A model generated the notes under the pieces. It ran no database searches. It saw only the letters and a list, made by a program, of their open reading frames with translations, and was not told where the DNA came from. A stretch of 64,000 bases of DNA from Torpedo marmorata (lineage: Eukaryota), in assembly GCA_977017645.1 (NCBI GenBank), contig OZ360246.1, positions 9,610,001-9,674,000 of the forward strand, written 5' to 3'. The translations under genes and the position numbers were made by a program. This document shows, piece by piece, positions 1,924 to 62,156 of the stretch. Within the stretch, counting starts at the first letter, position 1. Every line of letters starts with the position of its first letter.

Positions 1924-3340
1924 ATCCAGGAAGGGGAGAGTGTTATCGGAGATGGACCAGGTGAGTTTGAGATCGTGGTGAAAGTTGGATGCGAAATGGA
2001 TGAAGTTGACAAGCTCATCGTGGGTGCATGAGGCAGCCCCGATGTAGTCGTCGATACACCGGATGTCGTCGATATCCTTCCTGGATCTCTCTGTCTCCAT
2101 CTCGGGAGACAAGCTTTCCACCGACATTTACTACAAACCCTCCAACTCCCACAACTATCTGGACTACACATCCTCACACCCTGTCCCCTGCAAGGACTCC
2201 ATCCCCTTCTCTCAATTTCTCCGCCTCCGCCGCATCTGTTCCAAAGATGAGGTGTTCCACTCCAGATCTTCTGAAATGTCTGCCTTTTTCCACAAACGTG
2301 GCTTCCCCTCCACCACCATCAACTCAGCCCTCACCCGCATCTCCTCCATTTCCCGCTCATCTGCCCTGGCCCCCTCTGCCCCCAGACGCAACAAACATAG
2401 AGTACCCCTCATCCTCACCTACCACCCCACCAGCCTCCGCGTCCAACACATTATCCGCCGGAATTTCCGGCACTTGCTGCAGGATCCCACCACCAGACAC
2501 ATTTTTCCTTCTCCCCTCTCGGCCTTCCGTAGGGACCGCTCCCTCCGCGATTCACTCGTGCACTCGTCCCTCCCCACCCATCGCACCCCCGGAACCTTCC
2601 CCTGTGCCCGCAGGAGGTGCAACACCTGCGCCCACACCTCCCCCCTCACCACGGTCCAGGGCCCCAAACAGGCCTTCCAAGTGAAACTACACTTCACTTG
2701 TACATCCAAAGGACTTATCTACTGCATCCGGTGCTCCCTTTGTGGCTTTCTATACATTGGAGAGACCGGTCGTAGATTGGGAGACCGCTTTGCTGAGCAC
2801 CTCCTCTCCGTCCGCAACAACAGCAACCTCCCAGTAGCCAACCATTTCAATTCTGGGTCACACTCCCACGCTCACATGTCTGTCCATGGCCTCATGTATT
2901 ATCCCACCCAGACTACCCGCAAATTGGAGGAGCAACATCTCATATTCCGTCTCGGCACTCTCCAGCAAGATGGCATTAACATTGACTTTTCTGCTTTCCA
3001 CTAAACCTGTTTGTTGTTCCCTTCCCCTCCCCCCTCACCTGTCCTTCCTGTTTTTTTCCACCCAACCAGCCATCCCTCCTCCCCCTCTTTGCTGCTGTCC
3101 CCTCCCTCCTTTCTCCACCTATCATCTCCTGCCTTTGCCACCCCCCTTCCCTCCTCACTCCTTTGTTCGGACGCCTGCCGGCATTTTCTCATACTTTGAT
3201 GAAGGGCTCAAGCCCGAAACGTCGGTTATGTATTTCTACCTTTGCTACATAAAAGACACTGTTTGACCTGCTGAGTTCTCCAGCTTTTGTGTTTTTTACT
3301 ACATTGTTACGGTGTCTACAGATTTTCGTGTTTACTTTTT
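1924..3340 (+). mobile_element. 5'-truncated Penelope-like retroelement (RT C-terminus + GIY-YIG endonuclease) with inverted 5' segment
   Basis: ORF 2063-3004: FLDL, DIYYKPSNSHNYLDYTSSHP, IPFSQFLRLRRICS, Cys-rich linker, GLIYCIRC...LYIGETGRRLGDRFAEH. The RT core segment (RCIDDYIG...LPFLD) lies on the minus strand at 1924-2062. Confidence 0.92.
3190..3230 (+). ncRNA. Minimal type I hammerhead-ribozyme-like motif in the Penelope terminus
   Basis: TTGATGA-A-GGGC-TCAA-GCCC-GAAA-CGTC, flanked by CATACT / GGTTATG that can form stem I. Confidence 0.6.
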
Positions 3341-3640
3341 ACGATAGTGGTGTCATCTGCAAATCACAGTCGTGAGTGTATCGGGACGATAGTAAGGCCT
3401 TGTGGGGCACTGATGTTTAGGGTTAATGTGGAGCAGGTCTTGCCACCATCCTCACCACTTGCAGTCCACAGGTCAAGAAGTCAAGGTTCCAGTTGCAGAA
3501 GGTTGTTGATAACTACATTTCAGAGTTTTGGGATGAGTTTGTTTAGGACTATGGTGTTGACGGCAGAACTGTAGTCCGCAATGGGAGCCGGACCCGTTGT
3601 CCAGATAATCCAGGGTAGAGTGCAGGGCCAGGGAGTTGTT
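3340..3640 (-). mobile_element. Degenerate Rex/Babar-like LINE, RT part
   Basis: Reverse complement encodes FADDTTI and LALHSTLDYLDN; separated from its 3' part by the Penelope insertion. Confidence 0.65.
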
Positions 3641-4321
3641 CACCCCTCCCCCACCGTCTTCTGACCCCATACCTGACCTTGGCTCCAAATCCTACTGTGT
3701 CTTTTTCTCTATTTCTCTTAAAGAAATTTTCTGAGCCATTTTCTTTTCATGTGATTGCATGGAAAGACGCTGCCAAATGGTCATTTCATAGTTGCCATGA
3801 CGCAAAGTGAATGCTGTAATGACTCATGAAACCTGACGTATAGTTTACGTAATAGGACCTCTTGGAAACTTTGAGGGAGCTGACAATCAGTTCCAACAAT
3901 AAATCAAGAAAGGTTATTTAAATTTGGAGCCTGCATTCAGAGCTGTAAAACCAATTTATTTCCATAATTGTAGATCAGACGATGGGCCCTTTGAATGTGC
4001 TTCAGAATCAGAATCTATTGGTCATGAGCATGTCACAAAATTTGTTGTTTGTGGCAGCATTAAAGGGAAAATATTGCTATAAAATTACATTTAATAAATA
4101 AATTAGTGCAGAAATAAGAGAAAGTGAGGTTGTGCTTGTGGCTGCCTGATGTGTTATTTGTCTAAGATGCATCAATTCAAATCTCCAGATGGCATTATAT
4201 TTGACCATCTTCATAAATTTTTCTTGGTGCCCTGGTTTGAATGTTTGTGATCCATTCACGATTCTTTGCTAATTGCAAAAACAGCAATTGGAATGGTAAT
4301 AACCAATGCATCGTTTAGATA

Positions 4322-5452
4322 CCGTATATTTTGGCGTATAAGTCGAGTCTTGAAACCCTCAAAAATCTCTCAAAAAACGGTGGTCGACTTATACGCCGGA
4401 TATATTTTTGAGACCTTAAAATCAGCTCAAAAACCGCTCCACGCTGATTCGGCGTATGTCGACCCATGAAAAACAGATTTGGCGTATAGGTCGACCCTGG
4501 AAGCACCTCCCCACCACCGGTGCCGCCGCTCCCCAACACCTCCCCACCGCCGGGCACCGCCATAAACCACCCAGACGTTCTACAATTGTAGAGCCCGAGG
4601 TCCCCGCTCCTACCTGGGAGCCTGAGGTCGCAGCTCCTGCCCGGTAAGCCGAGGCTCCTGGCCGGTAGGGTGAGGTTCCCGCTCCTGCCACGTAGTCCGA
4701 GTCCGTTCCCGCTTCTGCTGAGGAGAACGAGGTCGCCGCTCCTGCCCGGGAGAACAAGGTCGCCACTCCTGCCCGGGAGAACGAGGTCCCCGCTCCTGCC
4801 CGGGAGAACGAGGTCGCCGCTCCTGCCCGGGAGAACGAGGTCGCCGCTCCTGCCCTGGAGAACGAGGTCCCCGCTCCTGCCCAGGAGAACGAGGTCGCCA
4901 CTCCTGCCCGGGAGAACGAGGTCGCCGCTCCTGCCCAGGAGAACGAGGTCGCCGCACCTGCCCGGGAGAACGAGGTCGCCACTCCTGCCCGGGAGAACGA
5001 GGTCGCCGCTCCTGCCCAGGAGAACGAGGTCGCCACTCCTGCCCGGGAGCCGACACATAACCGTGGTTCCTGCACCGAGCACACTTGGGCAGCGAGGCGA
5101 CTTCTTCGATGCGGATAGCACCGCACCCGATGTGGAGAATGGAGTCGCCAGTCACCGACTCTGGCTGCAGCCGAAGCTGAAGACTTGGACCCAGCTCCGT
5201 TTGGCATCTTCCCGGCCAGAAGCAAAGGTTTTTTTTACTGTTTTTTTTTTTTTTACTTACTTGCTTAATTTACAGCTTTGTTACTTGGCAATTGGGGTGT
5301 TGTAACAAATTTTGGGTTGTTGCTGGGAGGCCCGGACAGCCCGAAAATTGGGGTTCGACTTATACACCGGATATACAATAAAACCATTAAAATGAGGCTG
5401 AAAAAGGGGGGTCGACTTATCCGCGAGTCGACTTATACGCCGAAATATATGG
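4322..5452. mobile_element. Non-autonomous TcMar (Tc2/pogo-like) DNA transposon
   Basis: 25-bp TIRs CCGTATATTTTGGCGTATAAGTCGA / TCGACTTATACGCCGAAATATATGG (2 mismatches); TA on both sides; internal subterminal GTCGACTTATAC repeats. Confidence 0.88.
4722..5049. repeat. 27-bp GC-rich minisatellite (about 12 copies, plus degenerate copies from about 4595)
   Basis: Unit GGAGAACGAGGTCGCCGCTCCTGCCCG; gives 9-residue periodicity in the ORF track. Confidence 0.95.
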
Positions 5453-6744
5453 TAATTATTTCTAGCATTATTCAATGAAGTGTGAGCTCAATGAACGTAA
5501 GAAGCTAGAATCTTTCATGCGGCTGGGTGAATACAGTTTTGTTACCTGAATAACTTTGCTATCTGTGCACAAATCTCAACTATATGGGTGCATCCTTGGA
5601 GAATGCTACATGTCCTGATTAGTCGGGCATCAAAGATTATGGGGAGAAGGCCGGGCAGTGGGGCTGAGTGGGACAATGGATCAGCTCATGATTAAATGAT
5701 AGGGCAGACCAGGTGGGCAGAATAGCCTATATCTTCTGTGTCTTCTGTTGCTTTATATTGGTAGATAAGTTTTAATCGGCACTAAAATATTCCATTCACA
5801 GCCATTCGATCACAAACATCACTGTGTGCTAGTACCTCATGTGTCTCTGAAAATTGTTTATTGCAACATGCTGTTGAATAAAGGATACAGTTGCTTCGGG
5901 ATTCATACATTTTGGAGCAGATGTCTTAAGTAGCCTCTACTTTCCCTCCCACCCACCTTGTATCTCTGCACGTATTAGTGCTTAATTATTCTGCAGGTCG
6001 CGTGTGAAGAGAACTTCAAAATGATGCGCTTGCAACCATTAGTATGTGTTGCCACGGCAACTGGAGACGATACCTTGCAGACTCCTGACGGGGAAGCTCG
6101 CTGCATGATGTCAATTCTGCAGATAGTAAAAATAATATTTCAGGGCAGATGTGAATTAAAATTACTGAGGGACTTTGCACTTTTATGGATTAAGTCATCC
6201 AAGTCCAGACATAGGATGCAAAGCAGCATCACTGATATGGTTCAATATCATCTTCACAATTTATATTGCTTTATGTGAAATGCTTAATTTAAATAACATT
6301 TAGGGCATGCCAATAGTGAAGGCACTAGTGAATGTAATAAAGACATTAATTTTACAATGTGTGGCATCAACAGAAGAAGCTGAAATTCACTACCTCAAAT
6401 TTGCTGCAGCATTTAAATAATGTAGCAGTAAATAAATGTCGTGGTCATAACAGCCCCGATTAACAATCAGCAGTACAAGCAAAGCTCTTGAGTGAAACAT
6501 TCTTAACCCACCACCTGTCCCTTGACTCCGTCTTTTTCCACCAATTCATTTCCCTAATTCCGTGATCAACCCCCCTCAGATAGGGCTCTAAATATTCTCA
6601 CCTCTTAGTCGCTCCTTCTTCTACCCTTTGTACAACTTCCCTTTTCTCTTGGAAGCTTCAAGTTTAACATTTTGATCAAGCTTTTGTTCTCTGTCCTAAT
6701 ATCTCTAAATGTCATCGTCACGCAGCAGAGGAACAGGTCCTCTA

Positions 6745-6845
6745 GTAAAAACACATAAATGCTGGAGGGAGTCAGCAGGTCTCACAGCATCCATAGGAGG
6801 TAAAGATGAAACCGACGTTTCGCGTCTGAGCCCTTATTCAACAGG
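6745..6845 (-). mobile_element. Penelope-like terminal fragment (inverted)
   Basis: Reverse complement matches the terminus at 3190-3300 (AAGGGCTCAG...GAAACGTCGGT...GACCTGCTGAC...TCCAGC). Confidence 0.7.
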
Positions 6846-7084
6846 TCCTCTGACCCACTGCGGCCATTCAGCCCATTGAGCACCCATCCATCTAAACCCA
6901 TTAACCAGCACCTGGTCCTGTGTCTCGCCATTTCAAGTGCTCGTATATTGCGAGTGTCTCTGCCTCTGTTGCTCACTCAGGCAGTGTGTCCCAAATCCCA
7001 ACCACCCTCTGGGGGGAAAAAAAATAATCTGATCCCTTTGAACTCCCCATCCCCTCTCCCACACCTGTGCTAAGGGGAGAGGTA

Positions 7085-7695
7085 CCCCTCGGCTGTGTCC
7101 ACCACAATAGTGGGGATCTCCCAATGACCCCCCATTTCAATTCCCCGCCCCATTCCCATGCCGACATGTCTGTCCATGGTCTCCTGCACTGCCAGACTGA
7201 GACTATCTGAAAATTGGAGGAACAATATCTCGTATTCCGTATGGGCACCCTCCATCTGGATGGCATTAACATCGGCTTCTCCAGTTACTGTTCACCCCCC
7301 AACCCCTTCCCGCGCCCCCCCCACATCTTTCCCTATGTCTCCATTCCTCTTGCTCCTTTTCCCTCTTGCCTCCTTTCCCCTAGCTCTGCTTCCACAGCCC
7401 CAAACAAACTACCCCTCCCCCAGTCAATTCTCACCTTTCCTCTCTCCTGTGTCCCATCATATACAATTAACACCTTTTGTCTGGTGGCCTGTACTACTCC
7501 CCTGCCCATTCTTCCCTCCCCAGCCTTTTATTCAGGCACCTGCCTGCTTTTTACTCATACTTTGAAGAAGGGCTCAGGCCCGAAACGTCGGTTATAGATC
7601 TTTTTCTCTTATGGACGCTGCGAGACCTGCTGAGTTCCTCCAGCATTTCTGTTTTGACTACAATCACAGCGTCCGCAGACTTTTGTGTTTCACTC
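7085..7695 (+). mobile_element. Penelope-like element 3' fragment with terminal hammerhead-like motif (7556-7596)
   Basis: Peptide EEQYLVFRMGTLHLDGINIGFS matches the end of the 2063-3004 ORF; followed by a pyrimidine-rich UTR and TTGAAGA-A-GGGC-TCAG-GCCC-GAAACGTC. Confidence 0.85.
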
Positions 7696-8751
7696 GAAGG
7701 TGAGAGGTTTCCAACTATTAATGCCCCTTGTAATATCTAGTTCCCCCCCTCGACCTCCTCTTCCCCACAAAATATGAGCTTTTTGAGAAAAATATTTAGG
7801 AGTTCCAATGACTTGTAACCCACATAGAGAGAAAAAAACATTGCTTCATCCTTTCCTTAGATGGGCAATCCATTTTTTATTACAATAACCCTCCCCCACT
7901 TGATGAGAGTGTTATTTTTGGTAATAGTCTATCAAGCACTTTGGTACATTTGAAGGTGCTACTAAAATGGAAGTTGGTATTTGTTGATGGGATGTGGCAA
8001 TTAATATTTTTGATGACTCCACATTTAATTGTGGCTGAAAATAAGTTCCTTTCCTTGAAGCATATCTGCTGAAGTTGCCTGATGTCGTGCCAGATTGGAT
8101 TGCTAACACCCAGATTTGTCAGGACAGTGAATTATTTATTTCCTTAAAATGTAGTTATTTCTGTTAAGCTGATGGCTTTGGATAAGTGAAACTATCCTTA
8201 ATATGTATAGTTGGGCCTAGGTGGCTTCTTTACGCAGCCGGTGTTGGAGATGTGCTGCGATTTGAACAATGATTTCTGGGGTAATCTTGTGGTGTTTGTC
8301 TACCTGGAGAATCCTCAGGGATTGTTGCTCAGTAGTTGGAATTTAACAAATGCTGAATTTCATTGTTATTGTTTCAGGAATGATTTAAGGTGGAAACACA
8401 AGGTCAGGCAGCATCTGTGGAGGGACATTTCAGCTTGAAGTCTCTGTTTTGATGAAGGGTGATTCAATCTAAAATGTTTAGAACTGTTTTTCACTTTCAA
8501 CCGATGATGCCTGACCTGCTGAATATTTCCAACATTTTCTGTTTTTACAAGTATTAAAATATGGCCCTGTGCACGAAATTTTGAGTAGTTTTCACTATCT
8601 TCTGCAAAAACACACACATCTTATTACATTAATGGAACTTGCCTCGGAAAGTTATTTGTTTTTCTTCTGTGATGTATTTGCTATGTAAAGATTACGACTG
8701 AAAATTTAAGCATATGAAGTGTTTTAATATTTTTAATCCCTCTCTTTGTAG

Positions 8752-8880
<129 letters not shown>

Positions 8881-9059
8881 TAATCTGTCATCTGACTATT
8901 CAGCAGTCCTGATGTTTTGACATCTGGCTCACCAATGATGTTTGCACACTCCACTTACATCGAGGCACCAGTTCCTAAACTTGCTTTTACTTCATAGGAT
9001 TCACTGGAGTATTTATTATAATAATGTGCAACATCTGAAAAAAAAAAATTAACGAGTTG

Positions 9060-9230
9060 AACGTTCTCCCCATGACCGTGGAGGTTTCCTCCGGGTGCTC
9101 TGGTTTCCTCCTACATTTCAAAGACGTATGGGGTTAGTAGGTTAATTGGACATATTGGTGTATTGGGCGGCACGGGCTCGTGGGCTGGAAGGGCTGTTAC
9201 CGTGCTGTATCTCTAAAAAATTTTAAATTA
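9060..9230 (+). mobile_element. V-SINE (HE1-like), 5'-truncated
   Basis: Central domain ACGTTCTCCCC...GGTTTCCTCCGGGTGCTCTGGTTTCCTCC and the shared 3' tail. Confidence 0.8.
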
Positions 9231-10102: not shown

Positions 10103-10651
10103 CAGGTGCTCCCCTACTTACGATGGTCGATAGCGTGACTGTCGTTATTTACTAAAGTAAGGTAATCGCAAGCATCGTTGATTTTTACAATAAACTTTGA
10201 TAATTCCTCTAAGGTGAATTCTTTGTAGCCTCCTTGGTCAATCACTTCTTTTAGTTCAGTTGGAAAGCTTGCAGGGACTGATACAGTGCTGTCGGGAGAG
10301 AGCGGGGCAGTGGGATCAGTGTGGGAACTGATACAGCGCTGTCGGGAGAGAGCGGGGCAGCGGGATCAGTGTGGGAACTGATACAGCGCTGTCGGGAGAG
10401 AGCGGGGCAGCGGGATCAGTGTGGGAACTGATACAGCACTGTCGGGGGAGAACGGGGCAGTGGGATCAGTTTTGGGAATGATAAAGGGCTGTAGGGAGAG
10501 AGCGGGGCAATGGGATCACTGGGGCAGTGGGGACTGATACAACGCTGTCGGTGTTATACAATGTATACCTGTATTCTTTTTCGACTTAGATTTTTTCGAC
10601 TTACGATGGGTTTGCTGGAACGTAAACCCATCGTAAGTTGAGGAGCACCTG
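10103..10651. mobile_element. Tigger-like TcMar MITE containing a minisatellite
   Basis: TIRs CAGGTGCTCCCCTACTTACGATGG / CCATCGTAAGTTGAGGAGCACCTG; TA on the right, TG on the left. Confidence 0.85.
10277..10551. repeat. 50-bp minisatellite (about 5 copies)
   Basis: Unit ACTGATACAGCGCTGTCGGGAGAGAGCGGGGCAGCGGGATCAGTGTGGGA starting at 10277, 10327, 10377 and 10427, then degenerate. Confidence 0.93.
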
Positions 10652-11049: not shown

Positions 11050-11222
11050 GACTGTAGATGCTAGAATGTGTAGCATATAAACTCAGTGGGTCGAGCAGCA
11101 TCAGTGGGAGAAAATGGATGGTCGACGTTTAGGGTCTGAATGAAGGGTTCCGACCTGAAACAGCGACCTTTCTTATTCTCCCATTGATGCTGTTCGAGCT
11201 GCTGAGTTTCTCCAGCAGATTG
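11050..11222. mobile_element. Head-to-head Penelope-terminus hairpin element
   Basis: Left arm AACTCAGTGGGTCGAGCAGCATCAGTGGGAGAA is near-complementary to right arm TTCTCCCATTGATGCTGTTCGAGCTGCTGAGTT; centre has TGAAGGGTTCCGACCTGAAAC. Confidence 0.7.
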
Positions 11223-11408: not shown

Positions 11409-11516
<108 letters not shown>

Positions 11517-14845: not shown

Positions 14846-14908
14846 ATTTTGACTTCAAGGCCATGTGACCTTTTTGCTGATTCCTATGGAGTGTTCTCAC
14901 CCAAAAAG
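14846..14908 (+). CDS. KIF1B: Candidate alternative cassette exon of KIF1B (ILTSRPCDLFADSYGVFSPKK)
   Basis: Pyrimidine tract + attag acceptor; 63 nt stop-free in phase 0-0; AAG|gtcggt donor; last 7 codons encode GVFSPKK, as in the upstream exon, with three synonymous differences. Confidence 0.65.
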
Positions 14909-15667: not shown

Positions 15668-15920
15668 GGGCGGCATGGTTAGCGTAGCGGTTAGCGCAAC
15701 GCTATTACAGCGGCAGCAACCCGGGTTCGAATCCGGCGCTGTCTGTAAGGAGTTTGTACATTCTCCCCGTGTCTGTGTGGGTTTCCTCCGGGTGCTCTGG
15801 TTTACTCCCACCCTTCAAAACGTACGGGGGTTGTAGGTTAATTGGAGTTTTGGGCGGCACGGGCTCGTGGGCCGGAAGGGCCTGTTTACCCTGCTGTATG
15901 TCTACATTTTTTAAAAAAAA
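15668..15920 (+). mobile_element. tRNA-derived V-SINE (HE1-like), full length
   Basis: tRNA-like head with A box (TAGCGTAGCGG) and B box (GGTTCGAATCC), V domain GTTTCCTCCGGGTGCTC, A-rich tail. Confidence 0.88.
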
Positions 15921-17860: not shown

Positions 17861-18625
17861 GTAATGATGAATGAGCAGCCATGTCCTGTTGTGGATGTGT
17901 TGAGGAGTGACAGCATAGGATGCTGACTCATTGCGAATTTTATGAGAATTTACAGTGAAGTATTTTTTGCCCCTTTACAATAGAATTCTGCCTTGAAGGG
18001 TAAGATTTTTGAAGTTTAAACTAAAACAAGTAGTGTTTGGTTAGTTTAGAAAGTGATCATAGAACACTACAGCACAGTACAGGCCCTTCGGCCCACGATG
18101 TTGTGCCGGCCTATATATACCTACCAAAAAAAAAACTAAACCCTACCTACCGCATAACCCTCTATTTTTCTTTCATCCATGTGCCTGTCTAAGAGTCTCT
18201 TAAATGCCCCTATAAATGCCCCTCAGGATCCTTTCAAGAAACTTGTATAAAGTAAGAATGTAATTTCAGATACTTGGGTTTGCAAATCTTCTTTCTCATC
18301 TGGCACTGTTATGTCATGTTCTTGGTTAATGAATGCCAAATCAAAGCTCTTTGTTCAGACTGTTAAGATCATCTTTAAATCATAGCTACATTCCTGTGGC
18401 AGAGTTTTTGATAAGGTTTATTTTGTTCATCTCTTTTCCTCTGGAGAACATCAATTGAAACGGTGAAACCACAAATGTAGTTCAGTTTTGCGTTTGTCAT
18501 GTTACTCTCGGATTTGTTTGCCTTTCAGAATGGAGCTTGAAACAATATAATTACAACGAATGCACAAAAACAAGCCATTTCAGCCCAAATGTTGGGCTCT
18601 TGAGAAAATTAAATTGAATATTAAT

Positions 18626-22034: not shown

Positions 22035-22250
22035 GGCGGCAGGGTTAGCGTAGCAGCGCCAGCGAGCCAAGTTCGAATCCGGTGCTGTCTGTAAGGAGTT
22101 TGTATGTTCTCCCCGTGTCTGTGTGGGTTTCCTCCAGGTGCTCCGGTTTCCTCCAACCCTTCAAAAATGTACAGAGGTTGTAGGTTAATTGGGCGGCATG
22201 GGCTCATGGGCCGAAAGGACCTGTTACCGTACTGTATGTCTAAATTAATT
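22035..22250 (+). mobile_element. V-SINE (HE1-like)
   Basis: Homologous to 15668-15920. Confidence 0.85.
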
Positions 22251-22489
22251 TGTTTTACATTTAAAAGAACTTGCACAGAGAATGGTAGGGCCTGAAAATT
22301 GTCCACCAGGCCTTTGCCACTCTTTCAGTGTGAGAAAGGAAAACAGAAAATACTGGAAACACTCAGCAGGTCATACAGCATCTGTGGAGAGAGAAACTGA
22401 GCGATTGTTTCTGCAGATCCATCTGCAGTGTTTTGACGCTTACTGTATTAGAACATCTCTGAAATGATAAGTAAATTGAACATCTGTAA

Positions 22490-22729
<240 letters not shown>

Positions 22730-24270: not shown

Positions 24271-24793
24271 ATAGGTTACATAATTACAATGCTGTTTATA
24301 GGAATAAGAACTGAAAATGCTGGAAACAATCAGCAGGTCAGGCAGCATCTGTGCAAAGGGAAACCATTAACATTTCAGGTTCAAGATCCTCCATCAGAAT
24401 TATTTATATTTACTGCTATTTGTAGGAGCTTGCTGTACACAAATGTGCTCTTTGGGTTGTCCTGAAGTTGGTGTGGACGGTGCTATAAAAAATATAGTTC
24501 TGACGTCGAAATGAACTTTTGATACGTTAATCAGAAACTGCAGATCCTGTAATCTTGAGCAAAAATCCATGCATGCTGCCTGACTTACTGAGTCCGATCA
24601 GGTTCTCCGTTTTGCTCAAGATTTTCCATGGAACTTGTTTTCTGAAAGCCAGTTCTGGAAGTTTCAAAACAGATATACGTGGTAACCGGATTCCTCGTTT
24701 CCATGGTGACTGCCTGTTGGTGAACTATCAGATCTTCTTGTCACAAACCATGAAATGATTCTTCAAAATCCCTTCAACTATTGTATCTTGCAG

Positions 24794-31664: not shown

Positions 31665-31802
31665 GGAGTTAAACAAGAAAGTCTGCAGATGTTGGGGTCG
31701 AGTGCAATACCCAAATGTGCTGGAGAAACCCAGCAGATCACGCATCGTCCATAGGAAGTAAAGGGTAACCAACGTTTTGGTCCTGAGCCCTTCGTCAGGT
31801 AT
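31665..31802 (-). mobile_element. Penelope-like terminus with hammerhead-like core
   Basis: Reverse complement reads CCTGACGAAGGGCTCAGGACCAAAACGTTGG (canonical CUGANGA core, G12 mutated). Confidence 0.72.
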
Positions 31803-31860
31803 ATAGGATCTTACTTCTCGTGACATCCACACAAGCATTTATTTCATTGTTTTTGCATGT

Positions 31861-33826: not shown

Positions 33827-35900
33827 GACCTTCAAAGGTGAAATTTTGAGAGTACAGAGTTTGTATGTACCTGTCAGGATCAAAGGCAAGGTTAGAAGGT
33901 ATAGGGAACCTTGGTTTTTGAGGGATATTGGGGATCTGGTTTGGAAGAAGAGAGAGGTATAACAGGTATAGGCAACATGAAGCAAATGAGGTACTTGAGG
34001 AGTATAGAAAATGCAAGAAAAACCTCAAGAAAAAAATCAGGAAGGCTAAAGGAAGACATGAGGTTGCTTTGGCAGACAATGTGAAGGTAAATCCTAAGGG
34101 TTTCTACAGGTATATTAAGAGCAAAAGGATAGTAAGGGACAAAATTGGTCCCTTTGAAGATCAGAGTGGTCGGCTTTGTATGGAGCCAAAAGAGATGGGG
34201 GAGATCTGAAATGGTTTTTTTCCATCAGTATTCACTCAGGAAACAGACACAGTTGTGGGAAGAAAGGAAAACAAGCAGTGAAGTCATGGAACCTATACAG
34301 ATTAAAGAGGAGGAAGTGCTTGTTGTCTTAAAGCAAATAAGGGTGGATAAATCCACAGGGTCTGACAAGATATTCCCTCGGACATTGAGGGAGGCTAGTG
34401 CAGAAATTGCAGGGGCTCTGGCAGAAATATTTAAAATGTCCTTAGCCATGGGTATGGTGCCAGAGGATTGGAGGGTAGCTCACGTTGTCCATTGTTTAAA
34501 AAAGGCTTCAAAAATAACCCTAGAAATTATAGGCTGGTGAGCCTGACGTCAGTAGTAGGTAAGTTATTGGAAGGTGTTGTAAGAGATCGGATGTACAATT
34601 ATTTGGATAGTTAGGGACTGATTAGGGATAATCAACATGGCTTTGTGCGTGATAGATCATGTTTAACCAATCTTATAGAGTTTTTAGAGGAGGTTACCAG
34701 GAACATTGACGAAGGAAAGGCTGTGGATGTTGTCTACATGGACTTTAGTAAGGCCTTTGACAAGGTCCCGCATGGGAAGTTAGTCAGGAAGGTTCAGACG
34801 CTAGGTATTCATGGTGAAGTAGTGAACTGGATTCGACAATGGCTGGACGGGAGAAGCCAAAGAGTAGTGGTGGAAGATTGCTTCTCAGATTGGAGGCCTG
34901 TGACTAGTGGTGTGCCTCAGGGATCGGTTCTGGGACCATTGTTGTTTGTCATCTATATCAATGATCTGGATGATAATATGGTAAATTGGATTAGCAAGTT
35001 TGCAGATGACACTAAGATTGTAGGTGTTGTGGACAGCAAAGAAGGTTTTCAAAGCTTGCAGAGGGATCTGGACCAGCTGGTAAAATGGGCTGAAAAATGG
35101 CAGATGGAGTTTAATGCAGACAAGTGTGAGGTGTTGCATTTTGGAAGGACAAAACAAGAAAGGACATACATGGTAAATGGTAGGGCACTGAGGAGTGCGG
35201 TAGAACAGGGGGATCTGGGAATACAGTTACATAATTCCCTGAAAGTGGCGTCACAGGTGGATAGGATTGTAAAGAGAGGTTTTGGCATATTGGCCTTCAT
35301 AAATCAAGTATTGAGTAAGGAGTTGGGAAGTTATGTTAAAGTTGTATAAGACATTGGTGAGGCCAAATTTGGAGTATTGTGTGCAGTTTTGGTCACCTAA
35401 CTCCAGGAAGGATAGCAATAAGATAGAGAGAGTGCAGAGAAGATTTACTAGGATGTTGCCTGTACTTCAGGAATTGAGTTACAGGGAAAGGTTAAACAGG
35501 TTAGGACTTTATTCCCTGGAGCGTAGAAGAATGAGGGGAGATTTGATAGAGGTATTTAAAATTATGAGGGGGATAGACAGAGTAAATGTAGATAGACTTT
35601 TTCCACTGAGGGTAGGTGAGATACAAACCAGATGACGTGGGTTAAGGGTGAAAGGGGAACATGAGGGGGAACCTCTTCACACAGAGAGTGGTGGGAGTGT
35701 GGAACGAGCTTCCAGCTGAAGTGGTAAATGCGGGCTCAATTTTAACATTTAAGAAGAATTTGGACAGGTACATGGATGGGAGAGGTATGGAGGGCTATGG
35801 ACTGGGTGCAGGTCAGTGGGACTAAGAGAAAAAAATGTTTTGGCACAGACTAGAGGGGACGAGGTGGCCTGTTTCTGTGCTGTAATGTTCTATGGTTCTA
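33827..35900 (+). mobile_element. CR1-type LINE, about 2 kb, 5'-truncated, frameshifted
   Basis: NPKGFYRYIKSKR, VPEDWRVA, SCLTNLIEF, MDFSKAFDKVPH, GVPQGSVLGPLLF, KFADDTK and [17 protein letters not shown]; 3' tail GTTCTATGGTTCTA. Confidence 0.95.
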
Positions 35901-40576: not shown

Positions 40577-40825
40577 GGTGGCACGGTTTGTGTAGTGGTT
40601 AGTGCAATGCTATTACAGCACCAGCAACCCGGGTTCGAATCCACCGCTGTCCGTAAGGAGTTTGTACCTTATGACCTGTATGGGTTTCTTCCGGGTGCTC
40701 CGGTTTCCTCCCATGTTCCAAAGACGTACAGGGTTGGTAGGTTAATTGGTCACGTGGGTGTAATTAGGCGGTGTGGTCTTGTGGGCCGGGAGGGCCTGTT
40801 AACATCTATGTCTTTAAAGTAAAAT
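40577..40825 (+). mobile_element. V-SINE (HE1-like)
   Basis: tRNA-like head, B box GGTTCGAATCC, V domain. Confidence 0.84.
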
Positions 40826-42112: not shown

Positions 42113-42226
42113 GTGACAGATGTGATTGTTGTTTATTAAAAATTGCTCCATCAATAATCTGTCAGCATGAATTCCATTGGTTTTATGTTGATGATAATTG
42201 CTTGTAAGGCACAACTGTCATATATT

Positions 42227-42914
42227 CATAGAACATTACAGCACAGAAACAGGCCCTTTGGCCCTTTTAGTCTGTGCCAAGCTATTATTCTGCCTCGTCC
42301 CACTGACCTGCACCCAGTCCATAGCCCTCCATGCCCCTCCCATCTATGTACCTGTCCAAATTTTTCTTAACTGTTAAAATTGAGCCTGCAGTTCGTTCCA
42401 CACGCCCACCACTCTCTGTGAAGTACCCCCTTATTTTCCCCCTCAACTTTTCCCCTTTCATCCTTAACCCATGTCCTCTGGTTTGTATCTCACTTACCCT
42501 CAGTGGAAAAAGCCTATCTACATTTACTCTGTATATACCCCTCATAATTTTAAATACCTCCATCAAATCTCCCCTCATTCTTCTACGCTCCAGGGAATAA
42601 AGTCCTAACCTGTTTAACCTTTTCCTGTAACTCAATTCCTGAAGTCCGGGCAACATCCTAGTAAATCTTCTCTGCACTCTTTCCATCTTATTGATTCCTG
42701 TAGTTAGGTGACCAAAACTGCACACAATATTTCAAATTTGGCCTCACCAATGTCTTATACAACTTTACCATAACATCCCAACTCCTTTACTCAATACTTT
42801 GATTTATGAAGGCCAATGTGCTAAAATCTCTCTTTGCAACCCTATCTACCTGTTACGCCACTTTCAGGGAATTATGTATCTGTTTTCCCAGATCCCTCTG
42901 TTCTACCGCACTCT
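42227..42914 (-). mobile_element. CR1-type LINE 3' fragment (same family as 33827-35900)
   Basis: Minus ORF ERVQRRFTRMLPGLQELSYRKRLNRLGLYSLERRRMRGDL. Confidence 0.92.
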
Positions 42915-43631
42915 GTGGATATAGTTAAGGAGAATGAGCGATATTGTCATTTTCAGATATTTAATGTGACCTGTCCTTCCGAAGCTGCCCTTTATCTGTT
43001 CTTTTTCTGCCCTGGGAACCTATTCCTCAAAAAAAAATTTTTTTTAATGTCCTTCCCAGAGTTATGAGGCCTCTTGCATGGTAACTGAGGTCTGGAGCAG
43101 CCTGACAGGTGACTACAAATCACATCAGCTGTTTGAGCAAAATTTTGATAACATGAGTCTTGTGAACTTGACCTTTAGTTACAAGAGAATTGTCTGTAAT
43201 TCCACAGGCAGCGAGATCATGTTGCAACAGAAAGGAGGTGTTTGGCGATGTAATGAGAGATGAAATGTAGTCTGGAACACTGATGAAAGTAAATGGTTTG
43301 CTGCATGTTTCTGCCAGAAAGAATCGATCATTAATCAGGGCAGAAGTAAATGGAATGCAGCTTTTTTTTTATTATTCCAAAGGTTTGAAATGTTACGTTT
43401 AAAGCATTTGAATGATTTAAACCGTCCAGCCTTCCAATGGAAACAAGGGCAAGAATGTGCATTTCAGTCACTGAGATGAATGTATCTTTTTCTCAACGTC
43501 ACCATTCTCAGTTATGCTGGAGACAAAAAAGGATGGAGAAACACAAGCAACTGCCGATATTGGAATCTTGATTAAACAGGGAGAAGCAGGCCGGGCAGCA
43601 TCCATGGAGAGAAATGAACAGTTTACATTGG

Positions 43632-43760
43632 TAAAAACACAATGCTGGAGAAACTCAGCAGGACAAACAGTGTCCTTTATATAGCAAAGATACATAACCA
43701 ACGTTTCGGGCTTGAGCCCTTCATCAAGGTATGAGCAAAATGTAGGCAGGCGCCCGAACA
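43632..43760 (-). mobile_element. Penelope-like terminus with hammerhead-like motif (43693-43733)
   Basis: Reverse complement reads CATACC-TTGATGA-A-GGGC-TCAA-GCCC-GAAA-CGTT-GGTTATG. Confidence 0.8.
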
Positions 43761-44589: not shown

Positions 44590-45035
44590 GCAGCATAAAT
44601 GAAACAAACGACACCTCATATTCTATCTGGGCACCCTCCAACCAGACGGCATTGACTTCTCCGGTTTATGTTAGAAACCCCCCCCCCTCTTTCTTTCCCT
44701 ATCCCTCTGTCTCCTTTCTTCCATCTCTGCATTCACAGGGCTAACCCCCTCCCCTGATCAATTCTCAGCTTTTCTCTCCTGCCCACCTATTCATGTCCAC
44801 CCATGACCTCTTGGTTGTTGGCCTGCGCTCCTCCCCCTGCCCCTTCTTCCCTCCTCCCCATGCCTTTTTATTCAGGCGCCTGCCTGCTTTTTGCTCACAC
44901 CTTGATGAAGGGTTCAGGCCCGAAACATTGGTTATATGTCTTTGCCTCCTATAGACACTGCGTGACCTGCTGCGTTTCTCCAGCATTTTTGTATATTAAG
45001 TACAATCACAGCATCTGCACACTTTCTTGTTTCAC
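44590..45035 (+). mobile_element. Penelope-like 3' fragment with terminus
   Basis: CACCTCATATTCTATCTGGGCACCCTCCAACCAGACGGCATT (endonuclease end), pyrimidine-rich UTR, then CTTGATGAAGGGTTCAGGCCCGAAACATTGG. Confidence 0.82.
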
Positions 45036-45141
45036 TAAATGAAATAGGAGGGGTTTTATGACAATACAGCAGTTTCTAGGTCACTGATAATGCTGGAAGC
45101 TTTTCGTTTTTTTTTTCCTGATTTATTAAATTGCATTTTGT

Positions 45142-45370
45142 GGGCGGCATGGTTAGCCTAGTGGTTAGAGCCAGTGACCCGGGTTCGAATACGCCACTGT
45201 CTGTAAGAAGTTGGTACGTTCTCCCTGTGACCGCGAGGTTTTCCTCAGGATGCTCTGGTTTCCTCCCACATTCCAAAGATGTACGTGATTAGTAAGTTAA
45301 TTGGTCACAACGGTGTATTTGGGCGGTGTGGGCCGGAAGGGCCTGTTACTGCCCTGTCTCTCTAAATTGA
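45142..45370 (+). mobile_element. V-SINE (HE1-like)
   Basis: Homologous to 15668. Confidence 0.83.
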
Positions 45371-45943
45371 AGTTTAAAAGTTTGAACTTTTTTCTCTGTT
45401 CTGTTCAAGCCTTTGGATTAGTTGTCTGATATTTCAACTGCAATGGTTCTTTTCCCACATTTAATTTCCTCATAAAATTTTAAGAACTTTTGTGATCTTC
45501 CCAAATATAGTTTTTTTAAACCAAAGGAATTCCAGGCTGAAAAGGCTTCTCAAAATGCCAACTTCAGCCTACAACTGAGAGCACTGGGCATGTGCAGTCA
45601 GATCGAGCTATTCCTGTATAGAATGTAAACTCAAGACCAAATTTATTTGTTCCATTAAGAAAAAAATGTTCTTTACACCTGGTGAAGGAATTGTTTAGTA
45701 TAATTGTCTAGTATAATTAATATAATCCTAATATTAGTCATAGAACATCGAACATTCCACACAGTACTGGCCATTCAGCCCACAATGTTGTGCCGACCTA
45801 TGTAAAAGTACTCCACGACAGTCTAATTTTTCCGTCCATCACACCCATAACCCACTATTTTTCTTTCATGACAGTCATGCAGGGTAGGGAATAAAAATTG
45901 CATTTAACCAATCAATCACTTGAAAGCATTAGAGACAAATGTA

Positions 45944-46711: not shown

Positions 46712-46734
46712 GTAAGCACGTAGGACTATAGATC

Positions 46735-55671: not shown

Positions 55672-57275
55672 TATTTTCTTGGATACAATACCTGTACGGA
55701 ATGCAATCTCTTGATGGGTATTGACCAAAACTTTCACGTCTGAAATGTAATGTAATCTAAAATGCCTTTCAACATACTGAGATAAAATGACCAATGAAAT
55801 GGAAAAACTGATTGGATTTTCTCCCCCCGTTTTAGGATTAGTTTAGGATCAACGTTCAATGGTTTGTGTTCCTGAACTCTCAAGTTCCTTGGCTTTGTCA
55901 GTTGTTTTTATTGTCTGATCATTTAGAAAATATTGTGCCTTTCTTAGACTATCCTCACAACCCACTCTGATGTGAATTTGTCTCTTTGTAACCCCGATCT
56001 GTAGCCAAATCTCTCCAAAGCTCAGCACATCCCTATTTTTCAAACTGGATATGTGCTTTCACTTACTTCATCCCTCCTGTTCTGCTTGTTTGTGGACAGA
56101 GCCTGTAGTGAAGTAGCCCTCCCCATCCCACTCGTGTGCCCTTAAGGTATCCTCCCAACTCTTTTTGGCAGCCCAGTGATGCTGTGAGGGACTCCTGCAT
56201 TGTTGAAGGTGACTTTTCTCTCATGAGCTATTAAACAAATGTGGTGCTCTCCGATGTGCATAAAAGATTTTGCAATGCCATTTTGAACACCAGTTAATTT
56301 ATCCCCAGTTTCCCGCCCAGTTATCTCTGCATTGACAACCCTAAAGCAGATGGTTGATTTTGCCATTGTCACGTCACTTGATGTGAAAGATTGCAGTGAG
56401 CAAATTGGATGCAGTGTATCCTGACTACAACATTGTCTGCTCTTTACGTGCATCATTTATTCGCTGTAAAGTGCATCGGGATGTCCTGCATTCATGAAAG
56501 ATGACATAAAAATTAAGTTCTTCCAATTTGTTTTTTCTTTGTAGTTTTCATTGCTGCATGTTGCTCCCAAGGTAACTTAAAATTGTTTGTCATTTCAGTG
56601 CTCCTGCACTGTTGTAAGCAAGGATATTGCTCTGACAAAGCTGGTGCCAAGTTCTCTAGGATACGACCCCCTTCTTCCCACACCTGTTTTCCAGCTGCAT
56701 TTTCTTTCCCGATCTGTTTATTCCTGTGTCATTCAGTATCTCGGTCCTGGACCTAATTTTATATCCTGCTTTTGAAATGCGTCCAGTTCCTAACATTCCC
56801 ACATTAGGGACACACCCTTTTATTCCCTTTTGGATCTGACATCGATCTCCACTCTTTCCAAGATTCCATTCAGCCAGAGTGTGATCACATTTCTGGCAAC
56901 GTCGATCATAATTGCAGAGAATTGCAGTTGTGACAAAGGGTCATCGATCTGAAACATTAACTCTGTTTTCCATTCCACAGATGCGGCCTGACCTGAGAAT
57001 TTCCATAGTTTTCTATCTTAATTGCAGAGAATACGCTGGTCCATTGAATTATGAAATCTGTAACTGCAGCTTTGCTCTTTATCTCTTTCTGTTTGGATCC
57101 TTGTGTTACAGTTTAGGGCTGCAATTGCACATTTGATGAAAATGATCACTTCAAAAGTAATCCAGTGATCCTAAGTGCAGTCAAATAATTTATAAAGCCT
57201 GTTACAAAATGCTGGTAAATCGCTGGAAATTTGAGTCATTTGAGAGAAGCAATTATCTTTTAAAACCACAAACTA

Positions 57276-57463
57276 TAGATGCTGGACTAAAATCTTGAGC
57301 AAACCATGAGCTGCTGGAGGAACTCGAGAGGTCAGGCAGCGTCCACAGGAAGAAATGGTCAGCATTTCGGGTTGGGATTCATCAAAGGGCCCTGACCCGA
57401 AATGTTGACGGACCATTTTGACCCATGGATCTGCCTGACCTGCTGAGTTCCTCCAGCTTCTCA
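57276..57463. mobile_element. Head-to-head Penelope-terminus hairpin element
   Basis: GCTGGAGGAACTC...GGTCAGGCAG...CAGCATTTCGGGT arm pairs with ACCCGAAATGTTG...CTGCCTGACC...GAGTTCCTCCAGC. Confidence 0.72.
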
Positions 57464-57682
57464 GAGGGTTTCTTTAAATCAAACATTCTTTAATTATGTT
57501 TCTTGGTCTCTAATGTTTTAATATATTCAAGACAAATGATCTATGAAAGGTCAAGTGTGGAATTGTTCATTCTAGCTTGAAGAGATTGAAATAATCATTA
57601 ATACGCTTTTTCTCTGAAATAAAAGTTAGTGTTGACTCGTGCAATGGAAAATAACCCTTTCTTACCCTTAACTATGCTCCAG

Positions 57683-57931: not shown

Positions 57932-59259
57932 GTTGGTGAGGTTTCTTGGAGAACAGTGGGAAGGGACTAGCTCTTTTCATTGGAAGCCTTTAGAAATCAA
58001 GCATCAAAACAATTGTATTTCACCAGGCATGAAAAGATTTGCATTATTGCAGCATTTAGCTCATGGAGGTAGGGATTTTCGTTAATGTTTTGAAAGAAAG
58101 AAAGTCAGTTTCACAAAAAAAATTGCATAGCCCTTAATAACTTGGTGCCTTCCTTCTCAACTGAGAACATTTAACATGACTTGATTTCAAAATATTTCCA
58201 TTTAATGCTATTGGCGTCAGCTCACCCCCACGGATTAAAGGATTTGTGCTGTCTGGTTTTAAGCTGCTGGATGTAAAATGTACTCCAGTCACTATTGCTG
58301 ATGAGAGTAATGACTCAAGTGCATTAAGTTGACAGGCTGTGTTTGAGTAAAAGACCACTCTAATCTGTACACACGGGAACATCCACGAGAATCACAATTA
58401 ATTTGCAGCAATAATCTTTGTTCATTTGTCCCCTTTAGTAATTGTGATTTTTATGCCAGCCTTCTGAAAAAAACAAAGGCTGGTTAGTGGGCCACAAAGA
58501 TTTGTGCCAATGCAACAAAATAGATTTGGATCAGATTAGAAGCTATCGTATTTATTTGAACCTCGATGAGGTGGGGTTTGACATCCACTGTGGCTGAAAC
58601 TAGGCTGTGGTGCACATCTATTTTTCACTGGACTGAATATTTAAATTTGGTCCAACACTCGACACTTCTTTTGCACTTGGCGTGCACTTGATGCATGTCT
58701 TAGCACAAAACTCGGACTGTTGAGTGAATGCTGGCAGTGATACTTTTGAGTCTAAATAAATCTCCCTTGTTAATCCGTGATCCGTAGGGGTGCAGACTGG
58801 GTGGGCGGGTGGTGAAAAATATATTATGCGAGGTTGCATCGTTATAATGTAAGGTTGGCTTCTTTGCAGTCATATTACTGCAATGGTCAACCAATTCATT
58901 GACTAATTAGTGCAAAGCAGATGCATTATACATGAATCTTCTACCTAATTCCATGAACTAAACTAAAGATCAGGCACTGACTGCTGGAAATGAAACTATC
59001 ATAAATGTGTGGGGTGTACATGGCTTTCTTAAATATTGCACAAGATGATGATCTCCTTGTAAATTTGTGCAGCAGAGTTTGCTTATTAGCATTCCAAATT
59101 TTGCCACCCAGGTTTATGGTGAAAATATATTTATTTGGTGCTTGAAAGATTGAATCAATCCTAAAATTGAATTAATTCACAGCTCCAGGAAAATAGCAAG
59201 TGTGATAATTGAAGACCACATAAGAAATGACAAATTGGCTTGCAGTAACTGCTTGATAA

Positions 59260-60148
59260 TCATAGAACATTACAGCTCAGAAACAGGCCCTTCAGCCCTT
59301 CTAGTCTGTGCCAAACTATTATTCTGCCTAGTTCCACTGACGTGCACCCAGTCCAGATCCCTCCATACCCCTCCCATCCATGTACCTGTCCAAATTTTTC
59401 TTAAATATTAAAATTGAGCCTGTATTCACTACTTCACGTAGCAGCTCGTTCCATACTCCCACCACACTCTGTGAAGAAATTCCCCCTAAACATCTCCCCT
59501 TTCACCCTTAACCTATGACCTCTGCTTTGTATCTTACCTAACATCAGTGTAAAAAGCCTGCTTGCATTTACTCTATCTACACCCATCATAATTTTGTATA
59601 CCTCTATCAAATCTCCCCTCATTCTTCTACACTTCGGGGAATAAAGTCCTAACCTGTTTAACCTTTCCCTTTCACTCAGTTCCTCAAGTCCTGGCAACAT
59701 CCTAGTAAATCTTCTCTGCACTTTTTCAATCTTATTGATAGCTTTCCTGTGGTTAGGTGACCAAAACAGCACACAATATTCCAAATTTGGCCTCACCAAT
59801 ATGTTATACAACTTTACCATGACATCCCAACTCCTATACTCAACACTGATTTATGATGGCCAATGTGCCAAAAGCTCTCTTTACGACCCTATCTACCTCT
59901 GATGCCGCTTTCAGCGAATTGTGTATCTGTGTTCCCAGATCTCTCTATTCTACCGCACTCCTCAGTGCCCTACCATTTACTGTGTATCTCCTACTTTGGT
60001 TTGTCCTTCCAACATGCAACACCTCACACTTAGCTGTATTAAATTCCATCTGCTATTTTTCAGCCCATTTTTCCAGCTGGTTGAGATCCCTCCACAAGCT
60101 TTGAAAGCCTTCCGCGCTGTCCACTACACCTCCAATCTTTGTGACATC
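59260..60148 (-). mobile_element. CR1-type LINE 3' fragment (same family as 33827-35900)
   Basis: Minus ORF LYNILVRPNLEYCVLFWSP...KVQRRFTRMLPGLEELS. Confidence 0.92.
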
Positions 60149-61744
60149 TACCATTCGTGTGCAGTCCAAGTTATTTGGAAATTAATATTATTTCCTGGAT
60201 TATTCCAGCAACTGTACAGAATGCAAATCTTGTGTGACATAAAATTAGGTTCCTGTTTGATTATTTCCATATAGCTGTGTTTTATATCCATCTGTCAATC
60301 TATAATATGATTATCCAAGGCAGAATATTTAGTCCAAAATGGAATGATTCTGCAAGAGATAAAATATATTTAATAAGCAGGTTTTTCTGTATGAATGTTT
60401 TTAAATTTACTTGGGTTGGTTAAAAGAGCTTGTCCCTTTGACTGTCTCCCATGGCATGCTGGGGCAGTATAACAATTTCATATTTCCAAGTTATTTCATA
60501 AAACAGATTACTTTGTAAAAGTTGTCTGCTGTCCCCAAATTGCATATGTTTGTGTTACTACTTCAACATTCCTTTACTATTGGCCGTAATTTTTACTTTT
60601 TGATTAGAATTTTATTTGGAAGATTGTTTTGTTTGGAGTTTGTTTATCAACATGCCATTTTTTTACCTCACCAATCTTACCGCTGATATTGTTTCACCCT
60701 CTTCAGTCTGCTGAAAGGAAGGCACATTAAGCGTAGATGTTACCATCAATTTCAAGCTGCGTTTCACAAGAGTAACTTTTGTTCTTTTGGCTGTCTCGAC
60801 AGTTTCCAAAAACCTCCAGTTTGCTCTTGCTTTCCAAAAGGTCACTATGTTTGCTCGGCAGTCTATGTGTGACGAAGGCTGTAGGATGGAATGGCAGCAA
60901 GGCATTTTAAATGTCCATCGGCCTCTCAACAAGTACAAGAGGGTCTGATTAGGCCTGTAAAAATACGATTTCTACATTTGAGATAGATGGGAAAACACAA
61001 TAACTTGTGAACTGCAATTGATGTATTTTAATTTCAATTATTTTTTACCATACCTTACTAAAGTATAGTTGTGCCGATAAATTCTGCAACTGATACTAAT
61101 TAATCCTGCCAACCTCTTTTGGATTATTTTTGATTATTCAAATCTGTAAACATTAGTGCTTTTTTTGCTTGTTTTTCTTTCTTTCTGATAATCTTTTGTA
61201 GTAAGTGTGCTTACTGACTCGAAGCAGACTGAATAAGGCTCATGTGATCCCTTTTTGTTCCATTTTAGGTTTTTTTGTCTCATTTTTAACTTTCATAATG
61301 CTAGTTTGACATATTCTCCCTTGTTTCACCACCTGTTTTTCATCGTGTTTATTTCAATCTAATTATGATTCATTTTTCTGTTTAGCTTTCATTATTACAG
61401 CACTTTCCCTCCTTTTCCCTCTCACGCAGTTTGAAGACACGTGGGTTTGGTAAACTTGAAGTTCTGGCCATGTGGATGCGGTTTGGGAGAGGGTTCAGAT
61501 AGTAATAGGTCATAATTATTATGAGTGTACCTAACCCCATCCATCTGAACAGTAAGGATTTGCAGATACCCCATGAAGCAGGAAGGCCATCTGAAGCATC
61601 ACATTACAGGGTTTGTTTTTTTTTTGCAGATCCTAATTTTGCTATTGTAAATTAAAATCCAGGGAACATTTCCTTTGAATATCTTGGGCGTCTAATTGTG
61701 TTGCCCAGGTTAAGTAAGTAATTTGGGAAGTGAGTGACATCACG

Positions 61745-61961
61745 CAGCCATTCTCAACCTTTTTTTCAGCTATGGCCCCCTGAGGACTCTGCTCAAAGTT
61801 TATGGGTCCCCTTTCCTGTGAAGCAGTCAAGTTTAGTTGGTTTCTTCCGTACTTCTCTCCTACCGACTACATAAAAAATATTTTATGATTTCAGTCCGTG
61901 ACCCCCTGGGTGGGGGTGGCGGTGGGGGTGAGGGGCGTACGGCCCCCGTTGAGAATGGCTG
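61745..61961. mobile_element. hAT-type MITE
   Basis: TIRs CAGCCATTCTCAAC / GTTGAGAATGGCTG; same body as 509-710. Confidence 0.86.
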
Positions 61962-62012
61962 ACATGGAGAAATAGAATCAATAGCTTTTAGCAAAACAAC
62001 AACCGATTCTTT

Positions 62013-62156
62013 GAGTAAAACACAAAAGTCTGCAGACGCAGTGATTGAAGTAAAAACACAATCCTGGAGAAACTCAGCAAGTCAAATAGCGTCCTTTATA
62101 TAGCAAAGATAGATACATAACCAACGTTTTGGGCTTGAGCCCTTCATCAAGGTATA
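62013..62156 (-). mobile_element. Penelope-like terminus with hammerhead-like motif
   Basis: Reverse complement reads TACC-TTGATGA-A-GGGC-TCAA-GCCC-AAAA-CGTT-GGTTATG; flanked by a CTGATTCTTTGAG-like direct repeat (about 62004 and 62162). Confidence 0.78.

Follow-up and report, generated by a model that had tools for sequence, protein, structure and literature searches.

Minimal hammerhead motifs of a Penelope-like retroelement in the KIF1B introns of Torpedo marmorata

We analysed a stretch of 64,000 nt from the ray Torpedo marmorata (GCA_977017645.1, OZ360246.1:9,610,001-9,674,000, forward strand; hereafter the window), which lies within the gene KIF1B and carries dispersed hammerhead-ribozyme-like motifs. 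Judged by sequence, these motifs are the minimal type I hammerhead of the terminal repeat (pLTR) of an abundant Penelope-like element (PLE), and we regard the copies in KIF1B introns, with a probability of roughly 0.85, as passive cargo of truncated and neutrally decaying insertions that cause no meaningful cutting of the pre-mRNA. A preliminary description of the window had proposed that the two best-preserved sense copies, at 3190 and 7556, dimerise in cis and cut the KIF1B pre-mRNA during transcription; sequence comparison and folding models make such cutting by intronic copies unlikely, though they do not disprove it. In itself the finding is ordinary: the motif and the class of retroelement are both known, here at a very high copy number. 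Worth keeping are a wobble in the hammerhead core and a peak in 5' junctions at the fold's front edge.

The source element and its copies in the window

A 26-letter pattern of the motif had 87,165 exact matches in the 6.2-Gb genome (43,482 and 43,683 on the two strands; control, 0), and the 464 kb around the window held 116 matches to the family, 16 of them with an intact core (reversed 464-kb control region, 0 family matches). This density, if typical, would extrapolate to over a million family fragments genome-wide. Thirty pattern-matching loci shared a common element that is anchored at its 3' end and truncated at its 5' end to a varying extent. The domains RVT_1 and then GIY-YIG occur in one frame at loci L035 (684 aa) and L001 (404 aa; Pfam E 0.0005-0.02, under the curated cut-offs). 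The suggested link to Penelope is thus borne out: the copies are the 3' ends of elements with a reverse transcriptase (RT) and a GIY-YIG endonuclease, and the 3190 copy ends one such element. This element (2076-3333) is overlapped by an open frame at 2048-3004 (318 aa) that covers the RT thumb, the linker CARRRCNTC and the GIY-YIG endonuclease, and its 3' end lies at +141 from U3 (the U at core position 3). Since the 3190 copy is 94-96% identical to dispersed copies, its insertion appears to be recent. The CX4CxxC linker, together with a DKG motif (DKGG in L033), points to the Neptune type, an assignment made from motifs alone, the linker being a feature of Nematis as well (bioRxiv 2021.04.23.441226).

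The architecture of the copies is also that of PLEs. Thirty loci contain the 5' part of the open reading frame (ORF), and in 14 of these a 3'-end piece of variable length lies upstream in direct orientation, the partial tandem from which a pseudo-LTR (pLTR) arises; seven of the 14 have a recognisable hammerhead. Ten of the 14 upstream repeats start 5' of U3 and none at the cut site, which in the upstream repeat falls 151-154 nt before the start codon (five partial-tandem loci checked). Besides 5' truncation, adjacent inverted copies are frequent, with 50 of the 116 copies in the 464 kb lying within 400 bp of a copy on the opposite strand. Head-to-head pairs of stubs were observed in the window at 11078-11222 and 57308-57471, and also at L010/L011. 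The 3' ends fall into two classes past the cut site, at +101..107 (24 arms) and +136..148 (28 arms) from U3, which account for 52/52 arms examined and fit the published PLE tail (optional, 30-40 bp). The copies are not non-LTR retrozymes (LTR, long terminal repeat), whose tandem units are non-coding and carry a hammerhead each, as those in the window are dispersed and joined to ORF remains.

Two observations concern the family outside the core. A second box, 63-90 nt after U3 (3262-3290 in the window), is as conserved across subfamilies as the core, which is in part an effect of how copies were selected. Single copies of it fold into a small hairpin, no consensus structure was obtained with RNAalifold, and the box, which lies just 5' of the short 3' end, may be a protein-binding or reverse-transcription signal. 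Elsewhere in the genome (G000:C25:171643190-171643600), five tandem hammerhead cores with C3 lie on one strand at spacings of 143, 144, 48 and 48 nt; so close an array makes a likelier candidate for cleavage as dimers than the copies in KIF1B.

Within the window, 15 family copies were detected at E<0.001. The preliminary description had listed seven copies of the full motif, and all seven belong to this one repeat family on the strands it gave (nhmmer E 2e-24 to 2e-33). Only 3190(+), 7556(+) and 43693(-) in the window, 3/7 of these copies, match a strict descriptor made up of Y-UGANGA, a single base, a stem II of 4 bp, GAAA, a paired palindrome and UH; those at 6811, 31765, 44896 and 62116 have each lost G8, G12 or G16.2. 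The predicted cut sites after 3223 and 7589 had been placed correctly. Of five more degenerate sites, those near 8450, 11140, 24380 and 56935 are family members, and the one at 17605 is a 15-nt match without significance (E 3.8). Further copies that had escaped the list lie at 11078-11139(-), 22341-22411(-), 57308-57388(-) and 57385-57471(+). The covariance-model search that had been proposed as a check returned no hammerhead family among 3 Rfam matches at E<=10; a motif without stem III would not be expected to match the Rfam hammerhead models. The family copies and the two KIF1B exons that frame the intron of interest are as follows.

143-277 (+): KIF1B exon, upstream of the intron with 3190, 6811 and 7556; contigs of three putative-RNA runs cover exactly 143-277
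1921-2063 (-): inverted 5' piece of a Penelope-like insertion (RT region; YIDD in the frame 1804-2127(-)), oriented opposite to L031/L035, to which it is 95-96% identical
2076-3333 (+): young Penelope-like element, 5'-truncated, 94-96% to L031/L035; RT thumb, CxxxxCxxC linker, GIY-YIG, 3' untranslated region/pLTR, long tail
3190-3230 (+): minimal type I hammerhead with U3.G8, its core intact; cut predicted after 3223 (descriptor, folding)
6745-6844 (-): antisense pLTR stub, core broken (G8>U, stem II lost); in the pre-mRNA, pairing with the copies at 7556 and 3190 is predicted
7115-7694 (+): Penelope 3' fragment of an older subfamily (endonuclease end and pLTR), 75-77% to L031/L035, 76% to 44686-45036
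7556-7596 (+): minimal hammerhead, intact core, U3.G8, predicted cut after 7589 (descriptor, folding)
8448-8547 (+): old decayed pLTR stub (nhmmer E 1e-6)
8752-8832 (+): KIF1B exon, the next one, residues 479-505 (tblastn)
11078-11222 (both strands; 11078-11139 -, 11140-11222 +): head-to-head pair of old decayed pLTR stubs (nhmmer)
22341-22411 (-): old decayed pLTR stub (nhmmer)
24306-24401 (-): old decayed pLTR stub (nhmmer)
31699-31809 (-): pLTR stub of a C3 subfamily, with G12>A and one mismatch in stem II (sequence, nhmmer)
43629-43760 (-): pLTR stub, intact core (hammerhead 43693; U3.G8, cut triplet GUU), antisense to KIF1B (descriptor)
44607-45036 (+): older Penelope 3' fragment, hammerhead 44896-44936 with G16.2>A, by which the palindrome is lost
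56931-56996 (+): old decayed pLTR stub (E 4e-4)
57308-57471 (both strands; 57308-57388 -, 57385-57471 +): head-to-head pair of old decayed pLTR stubs (nhmmer)
62015-62161 (-): pLTR stub, hammerhead with G12>A (sequence, nhmmer)

The wobble core, its conservation and its decay

The preliminary description had regarded two features of the core as unusual, an extra A after A9 and U at position 3. The former is not: a base between positions 9 and 10.1 is a conserved trait of the minimal hammerhead ribozymes (min-HHRs) of PLEs in the consensus given in PMC4209133. The latter is the majority state here, with 92,955 exact matches for U3 vs 2,011 for C3 genome-wide and G8 unchanged. U3 is fixed in the largest young subfamilies, and the C3-G8 pair is found in the older C3 subfamilies. 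Consequently the Watson-Crick 3-8 pair of min-HHRs (C-G or U-A) is replaced by a U3.G8 wobble in the majority, and the remaining features (UGANGA with GAAA, G10.1-C11.1, the extra base after A9, the palindromic 15.2-16.2 and NUH) are present in 3/7 of the listed copies and in the subfamily majority lines. A U.G pair is the mildest change possible at the 3-8 pair. The C3-G8 pair is described as important in PMC3088659 and PMC11167929; a U3 variant of the saltern hammerhead is quoted in PMC7151607, and Fig. S3 of PMC4209133, in a machine-read PDF of the supplement, has a PLE-linked Saccoglossus motif with U3/G8. The U3.G8 wobble is therefore a real departure from the C3-G8 pair, yet not unprecedented; a literature search for a hammerhead with U3G8, or with a wobble in place of C3-G8, returned nothing. 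Two candidate explanations were rejected. A compensated U3-A8 subfamily had 1,363 matches vs a G5>A baseline of 937, and many of those listed have C at N7, thus a CpG; an alternative register, with C at position 3 and an inserted U, breaks stem I and does not hold in the youngest subfamily, where C is followed by three U.

We compared the majority lines of 4 subfamilies, clustered on sequence 3' of the motif, and found 9 of 12 core positions invariant, against 6 of 31 in the flank. The subfamilies retain UGANGA, GAAA and CGUY and vary at N7, which takes all four bases, in loop 2 and in stem I. In the U3 subfamilies stem I stays paired (C-G to U.G at 2.1:1.1) and every other core base is kept. 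Pairs were counted in the 126 of 235 copies that had not been picked by pattern, with C-G 65, U-A 20 and U-G 14 at 2.2:1.2, C-G 90 and U-A 17 at 10.4:11.4, and A-U 73 and G-C 10 at 2.3:1.3. Core conservation and stem covariation, whose absence would have counted against the motif, are thus both present, the latter as subfamily-linked two-sided changes in stems I and II that represent few independent events. With so few events and a seeded profile, the sequences support selection on the fold in source elements but do not measure it. Genome-wide counts of stem II double changes (217, 135 and 238 matches) were set aside as proof of covariation, since two transitions turn G-C into A-U.

After insertion, the picture is one of decay. 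Among the same 126 copies, G12>A occurred in 29, C11.1>T in 24, C15.2>T in 28 and G16.2>A in 22, so that each CpG base of the core is lost in about a fifth of copies; G5>A had 937 exact matches, about 1% of the family. Inserted copies are thus likely to decay neutrally, mainly at CpG, while the subfamilies keep the core.

The fate of the KIF1B pre-mRNA and the course of copying

KIF1B lies on the + strand; the translation of one exon is 98-100% identical to ray KIF1B proteins, and the coding exons located by tblastn run from 148 kb upstream of the window start to 115 kb from it. Residues 409-478 of ray KIF1B align to 67-276 and the following residues (from 479) to 8752-8832, so the exons at about 143-277 and 8752-8832 are consecutive, and the copies at 3190, 6811, 7556 and 8450 lie in one intron (277-8752), as had been stated for 3190 and 7556. 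Four sequencing runs compared with the window contained the 143-277 exon inside longer contigs, as well as family sequence; these are small shares of runs from other, related organisms, guessed to be RNA, and their contigs cannot show RNA ends or levels. The protein match of this exon begins at 67 and contig coverage is limited to 143-277, which suggests two acceptor sites. A small KIF1B exon at 14846-14908 was matched by the catshark isoform alone among three proteins tested, and is likely alternatively spliced.

Cutting of the pre-mRNA through pairing of the ACGU palindromes of 3190 and 7556, at a rate that would affect the gene, has what it minimally needs: both copies are in sense orientation in the same intron with core and stems intact, and, as dimers, minimal hammerheads of PLEs cleave to some extent (PMC4209133). 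It nevertheless appears highly improbable. A distance of 4,366 nt separates the two copies, the predicted energy of the ACGU duplex is -1.7 kcal/mol, and a swapped dimer is predicted to be less stable than two free folds (-12.8 vs -19.9), with near-zero predicted probability for stem I in the native flanks. The intervening antisense copy (6745-6844) is predicted to pair with 7544-7658 (the 7556 copy, -139.8) or with 3173-3300 (the 3190 copy, -106.1), far more stably than the 4-bp dimer. Moreover, both copies have the wobble in place of C3-G8, 3190 is an ordinary young insertion, and the KIF1B coding span has no strand bias, with 32 sense vs 36 antisense copies (p 0.72; intact, 5 vs 3), a balance that gives no sign of selection either way at low power. 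Published PLE hammerheads, too, cut poorly or only with an element protein: single min-HHRs stay uncut and multimers cut weakly (PMC4209133), and the anole PLE hammerhead cuts only with PLE protein, is dispensable for insertion in vitro and left no RNA-seq ends (PMC11167929). Were pre-mRNA cut by sense copies, ray genes would bear a hidden burden of intronic sites in the tens of thousands; the evidence argues against it. As a separate observation, oppositely oriented copies of one intron yield a long predicted RNA duplex that is a possible editing substrate.

The ends of inserted copies bear on what happens in the source element. We counted 5' junctions in the youngest subfamily as four mismatching flank letters followed by a 25-letter exact match. 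There was no excess at the cut site (75, or about 112 when corrected for a stricter first flanking letter) relative to control sites (93 at +4, 65 at +15 and 101 at 13 nt before U3). A peak of 447 was found at the front edge, 5 nt before U3, 4- to 5-fold over controls (65-101), part of it being fold-back junctions counted on both strands. A count of 529 at U4 was discarded, as its prefix admitted single substitutions at U3, and a histogram was left unused, since 20 loci that had been chosen for starting at the front edge inflated it. We infer that the front-edge peak marks an RNA start or a reverse-transcription stop at the fold. The passive-cargo reading may then be set in the following mechanism. 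The fold would be selected in source elements, where the hammerhead would cut slowly and only with help, given by a partner in tandem and probably by the protein of the element itself; uncut RNA would usually serve as the template for copying, because all 52/52 arms extend far beyond the cut site, at which 5' junctions are not in excess. The scattered intronic copies would have neither tandem partner nor protein help. It is conceivable, if speculative, that the most successful Penelope lineage here fixed a slow U3.G8 hammerhead that does not cut freely but works as a fold gated by protein, with RNA start or RT stop at the uncut front edge. This would explain both the 447 peak and the lack of a cut-site peak, and, if true, about 90,000 intact copies would constitute a genome-scale natural test of the purpose of PLE hammerheads.

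The absence of any trace of cut ends in the genome counts in favour of another reading, that the hammerhead of the youngest subfamilies is a dead relic in which U3.G8 has abolished cutting, kept for a promoter, protein-binding or reverse-transcription role or by descent. U3 is fixed in the largest young subfamilies, the compensating U3-A8 subfamily was not found, and Naiad PLEs have spread without hammerheads (bioRxiv 2021.04.23.441226). Against this, the U3 subfamilies vary at N7, loop 2 and stem I yet keep the other core bases and stem I pairing, U3/G8 also occurs in an unrelated PLE (PMC4209133), and the change to U.G is a mild one; we hold the relic to be a minority possibility, though a substantial one. 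Cutting in trans, through pairing of intronic copies with abundant PLE transcripts or through PLE protein in the nucleus, would impose a low genome-wide tax on pre-mRNA. About 90,000 intact cores in the genome, family sequence in the putative-RNA runs of related organisms and protein-assisted cleavage of the anole PLE hammerhead (PMC11167929) speak for it, but sense and antisense counts in KIF1B are nearly equal and the anole study found no RNA-seq ends at the site, and we consider it improbable, if somewhat less so than the cis-dimer.

Several points weigh against the passive-cargo reading or the selection on the fold attached to it. The folding models ignore Mg2+ and tertiary contacts, and leave stem I unpredicted even in the element's own flanks. 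The strand test covers one gene and 8 intact copies, in which a modest depletion of sense copies would escape notice, and tandem hammerhead retrozymes are reported to be depleted from Xenopus introns (bioRxiv 2026.07.22.740005), so that such motifs can matter in genes. The profile used to find copies was seeded on pattern-picked copies and favours core conservation. Finally, double transitions alone make A-U pairs, so that pair counts from single copies overstate covariation and only subfamily-linked changes count.

Other repeats and likeness to known systems

The window also holds other repeats. The KIF1B intron of 3190 and 7556 also contains a tandem array of a 27-nt repeat (4591-5109; about 13 units) that has long open frames, and a 50-nt tandem repeat of about 5 units was found at 10224-10523. 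Remains of a reverse transcriptase like that of long interspersed nuclear elements (LINEs), in both orientations and 85-95% alike, lie at 33922-35900, 42213-42913 and 59247-60149; we take them to be CR1-like. Another dispersed short repeat (families D3/D5/D15), presumably similar to short interspersed nuclear elements (SINEs), occurs at 9028-9224, 15725-15913, 22071-22251, 40682-40823, 45183-45373 and 62720-62910. Identical 57-nt copies of a further repeat lie 13.8 kb apart, at 18156-18212 and 31957-32013.

Ray KIF1B shares with the ultraconserved amniote intronic hammerheads (RECK, CTCL, DTNB; PMC6155905) a type I hammerhead in a vertebrate intron. Those, however, are described as conserved and canonical-like, while the ray copies are minimal and mostly broken members of a mass repeat family that occurs on both strands. 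Another parallel is PAc, a Poseidon element of Anolis carolinensis (Frangieh et al. 2024, PMC11167929), which likewise has a pLTR hammerhead, two reverse-transcription starts that give rise to a tail, and no sign of cut ends. The two differ in that the PAc ORF begins inside a hammerhead with C3-G8, whereas the ray start codon lies 151-154 nt past the cut site of a U3.G8 hammerhead. With Neptune-type PLEs, as portrayed in bioRxiv 2021.04.23.441226, the ray element has in common an RT with a C-terminal GIY-YIG, the CX4CxxC linker, DKG, 5' truncation, partial tandems, an inverted 5' copy, and 3' ends of two classes separated by about 36 nt (the tail), its clade being drawn from motifs only.

No shark, skate, Callorhinchus or Leucoraja terms occur in supplement 2 of PMC4209133, and supplement 1 and the bioRxiv supplements may list chondrichthyan motifs; a literature search for shark Penelope hammerheads gave none, the one hammerhead paper that it matched using shark as a shape. 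The nearest relatives are the PLE min-HHRs of Cervera and De la Pena (2014, PMC4209133), which have the same YUGANGA, extra base before G10.1, G10.1-C11.1, GAAA, ACGU palindrome and short stem I, and are likewise sited in PLE repeats, mostly as dispersed single truncated copies. Among the entries of that source, the Acropora Neptune motif has a layout nearly equal to that of the ray, and the Saccoglossus motif has U3 with G8. The ray family is set apart by its majority U3.G8 and by its number, 87,165 vs about 4,000-9,000 in coelacanth and Xenopus. Why PLEs carry hammerheads is a question that the side-by-side C3 and U3 subfamilies of this genome, with their countable junctions, make testable.

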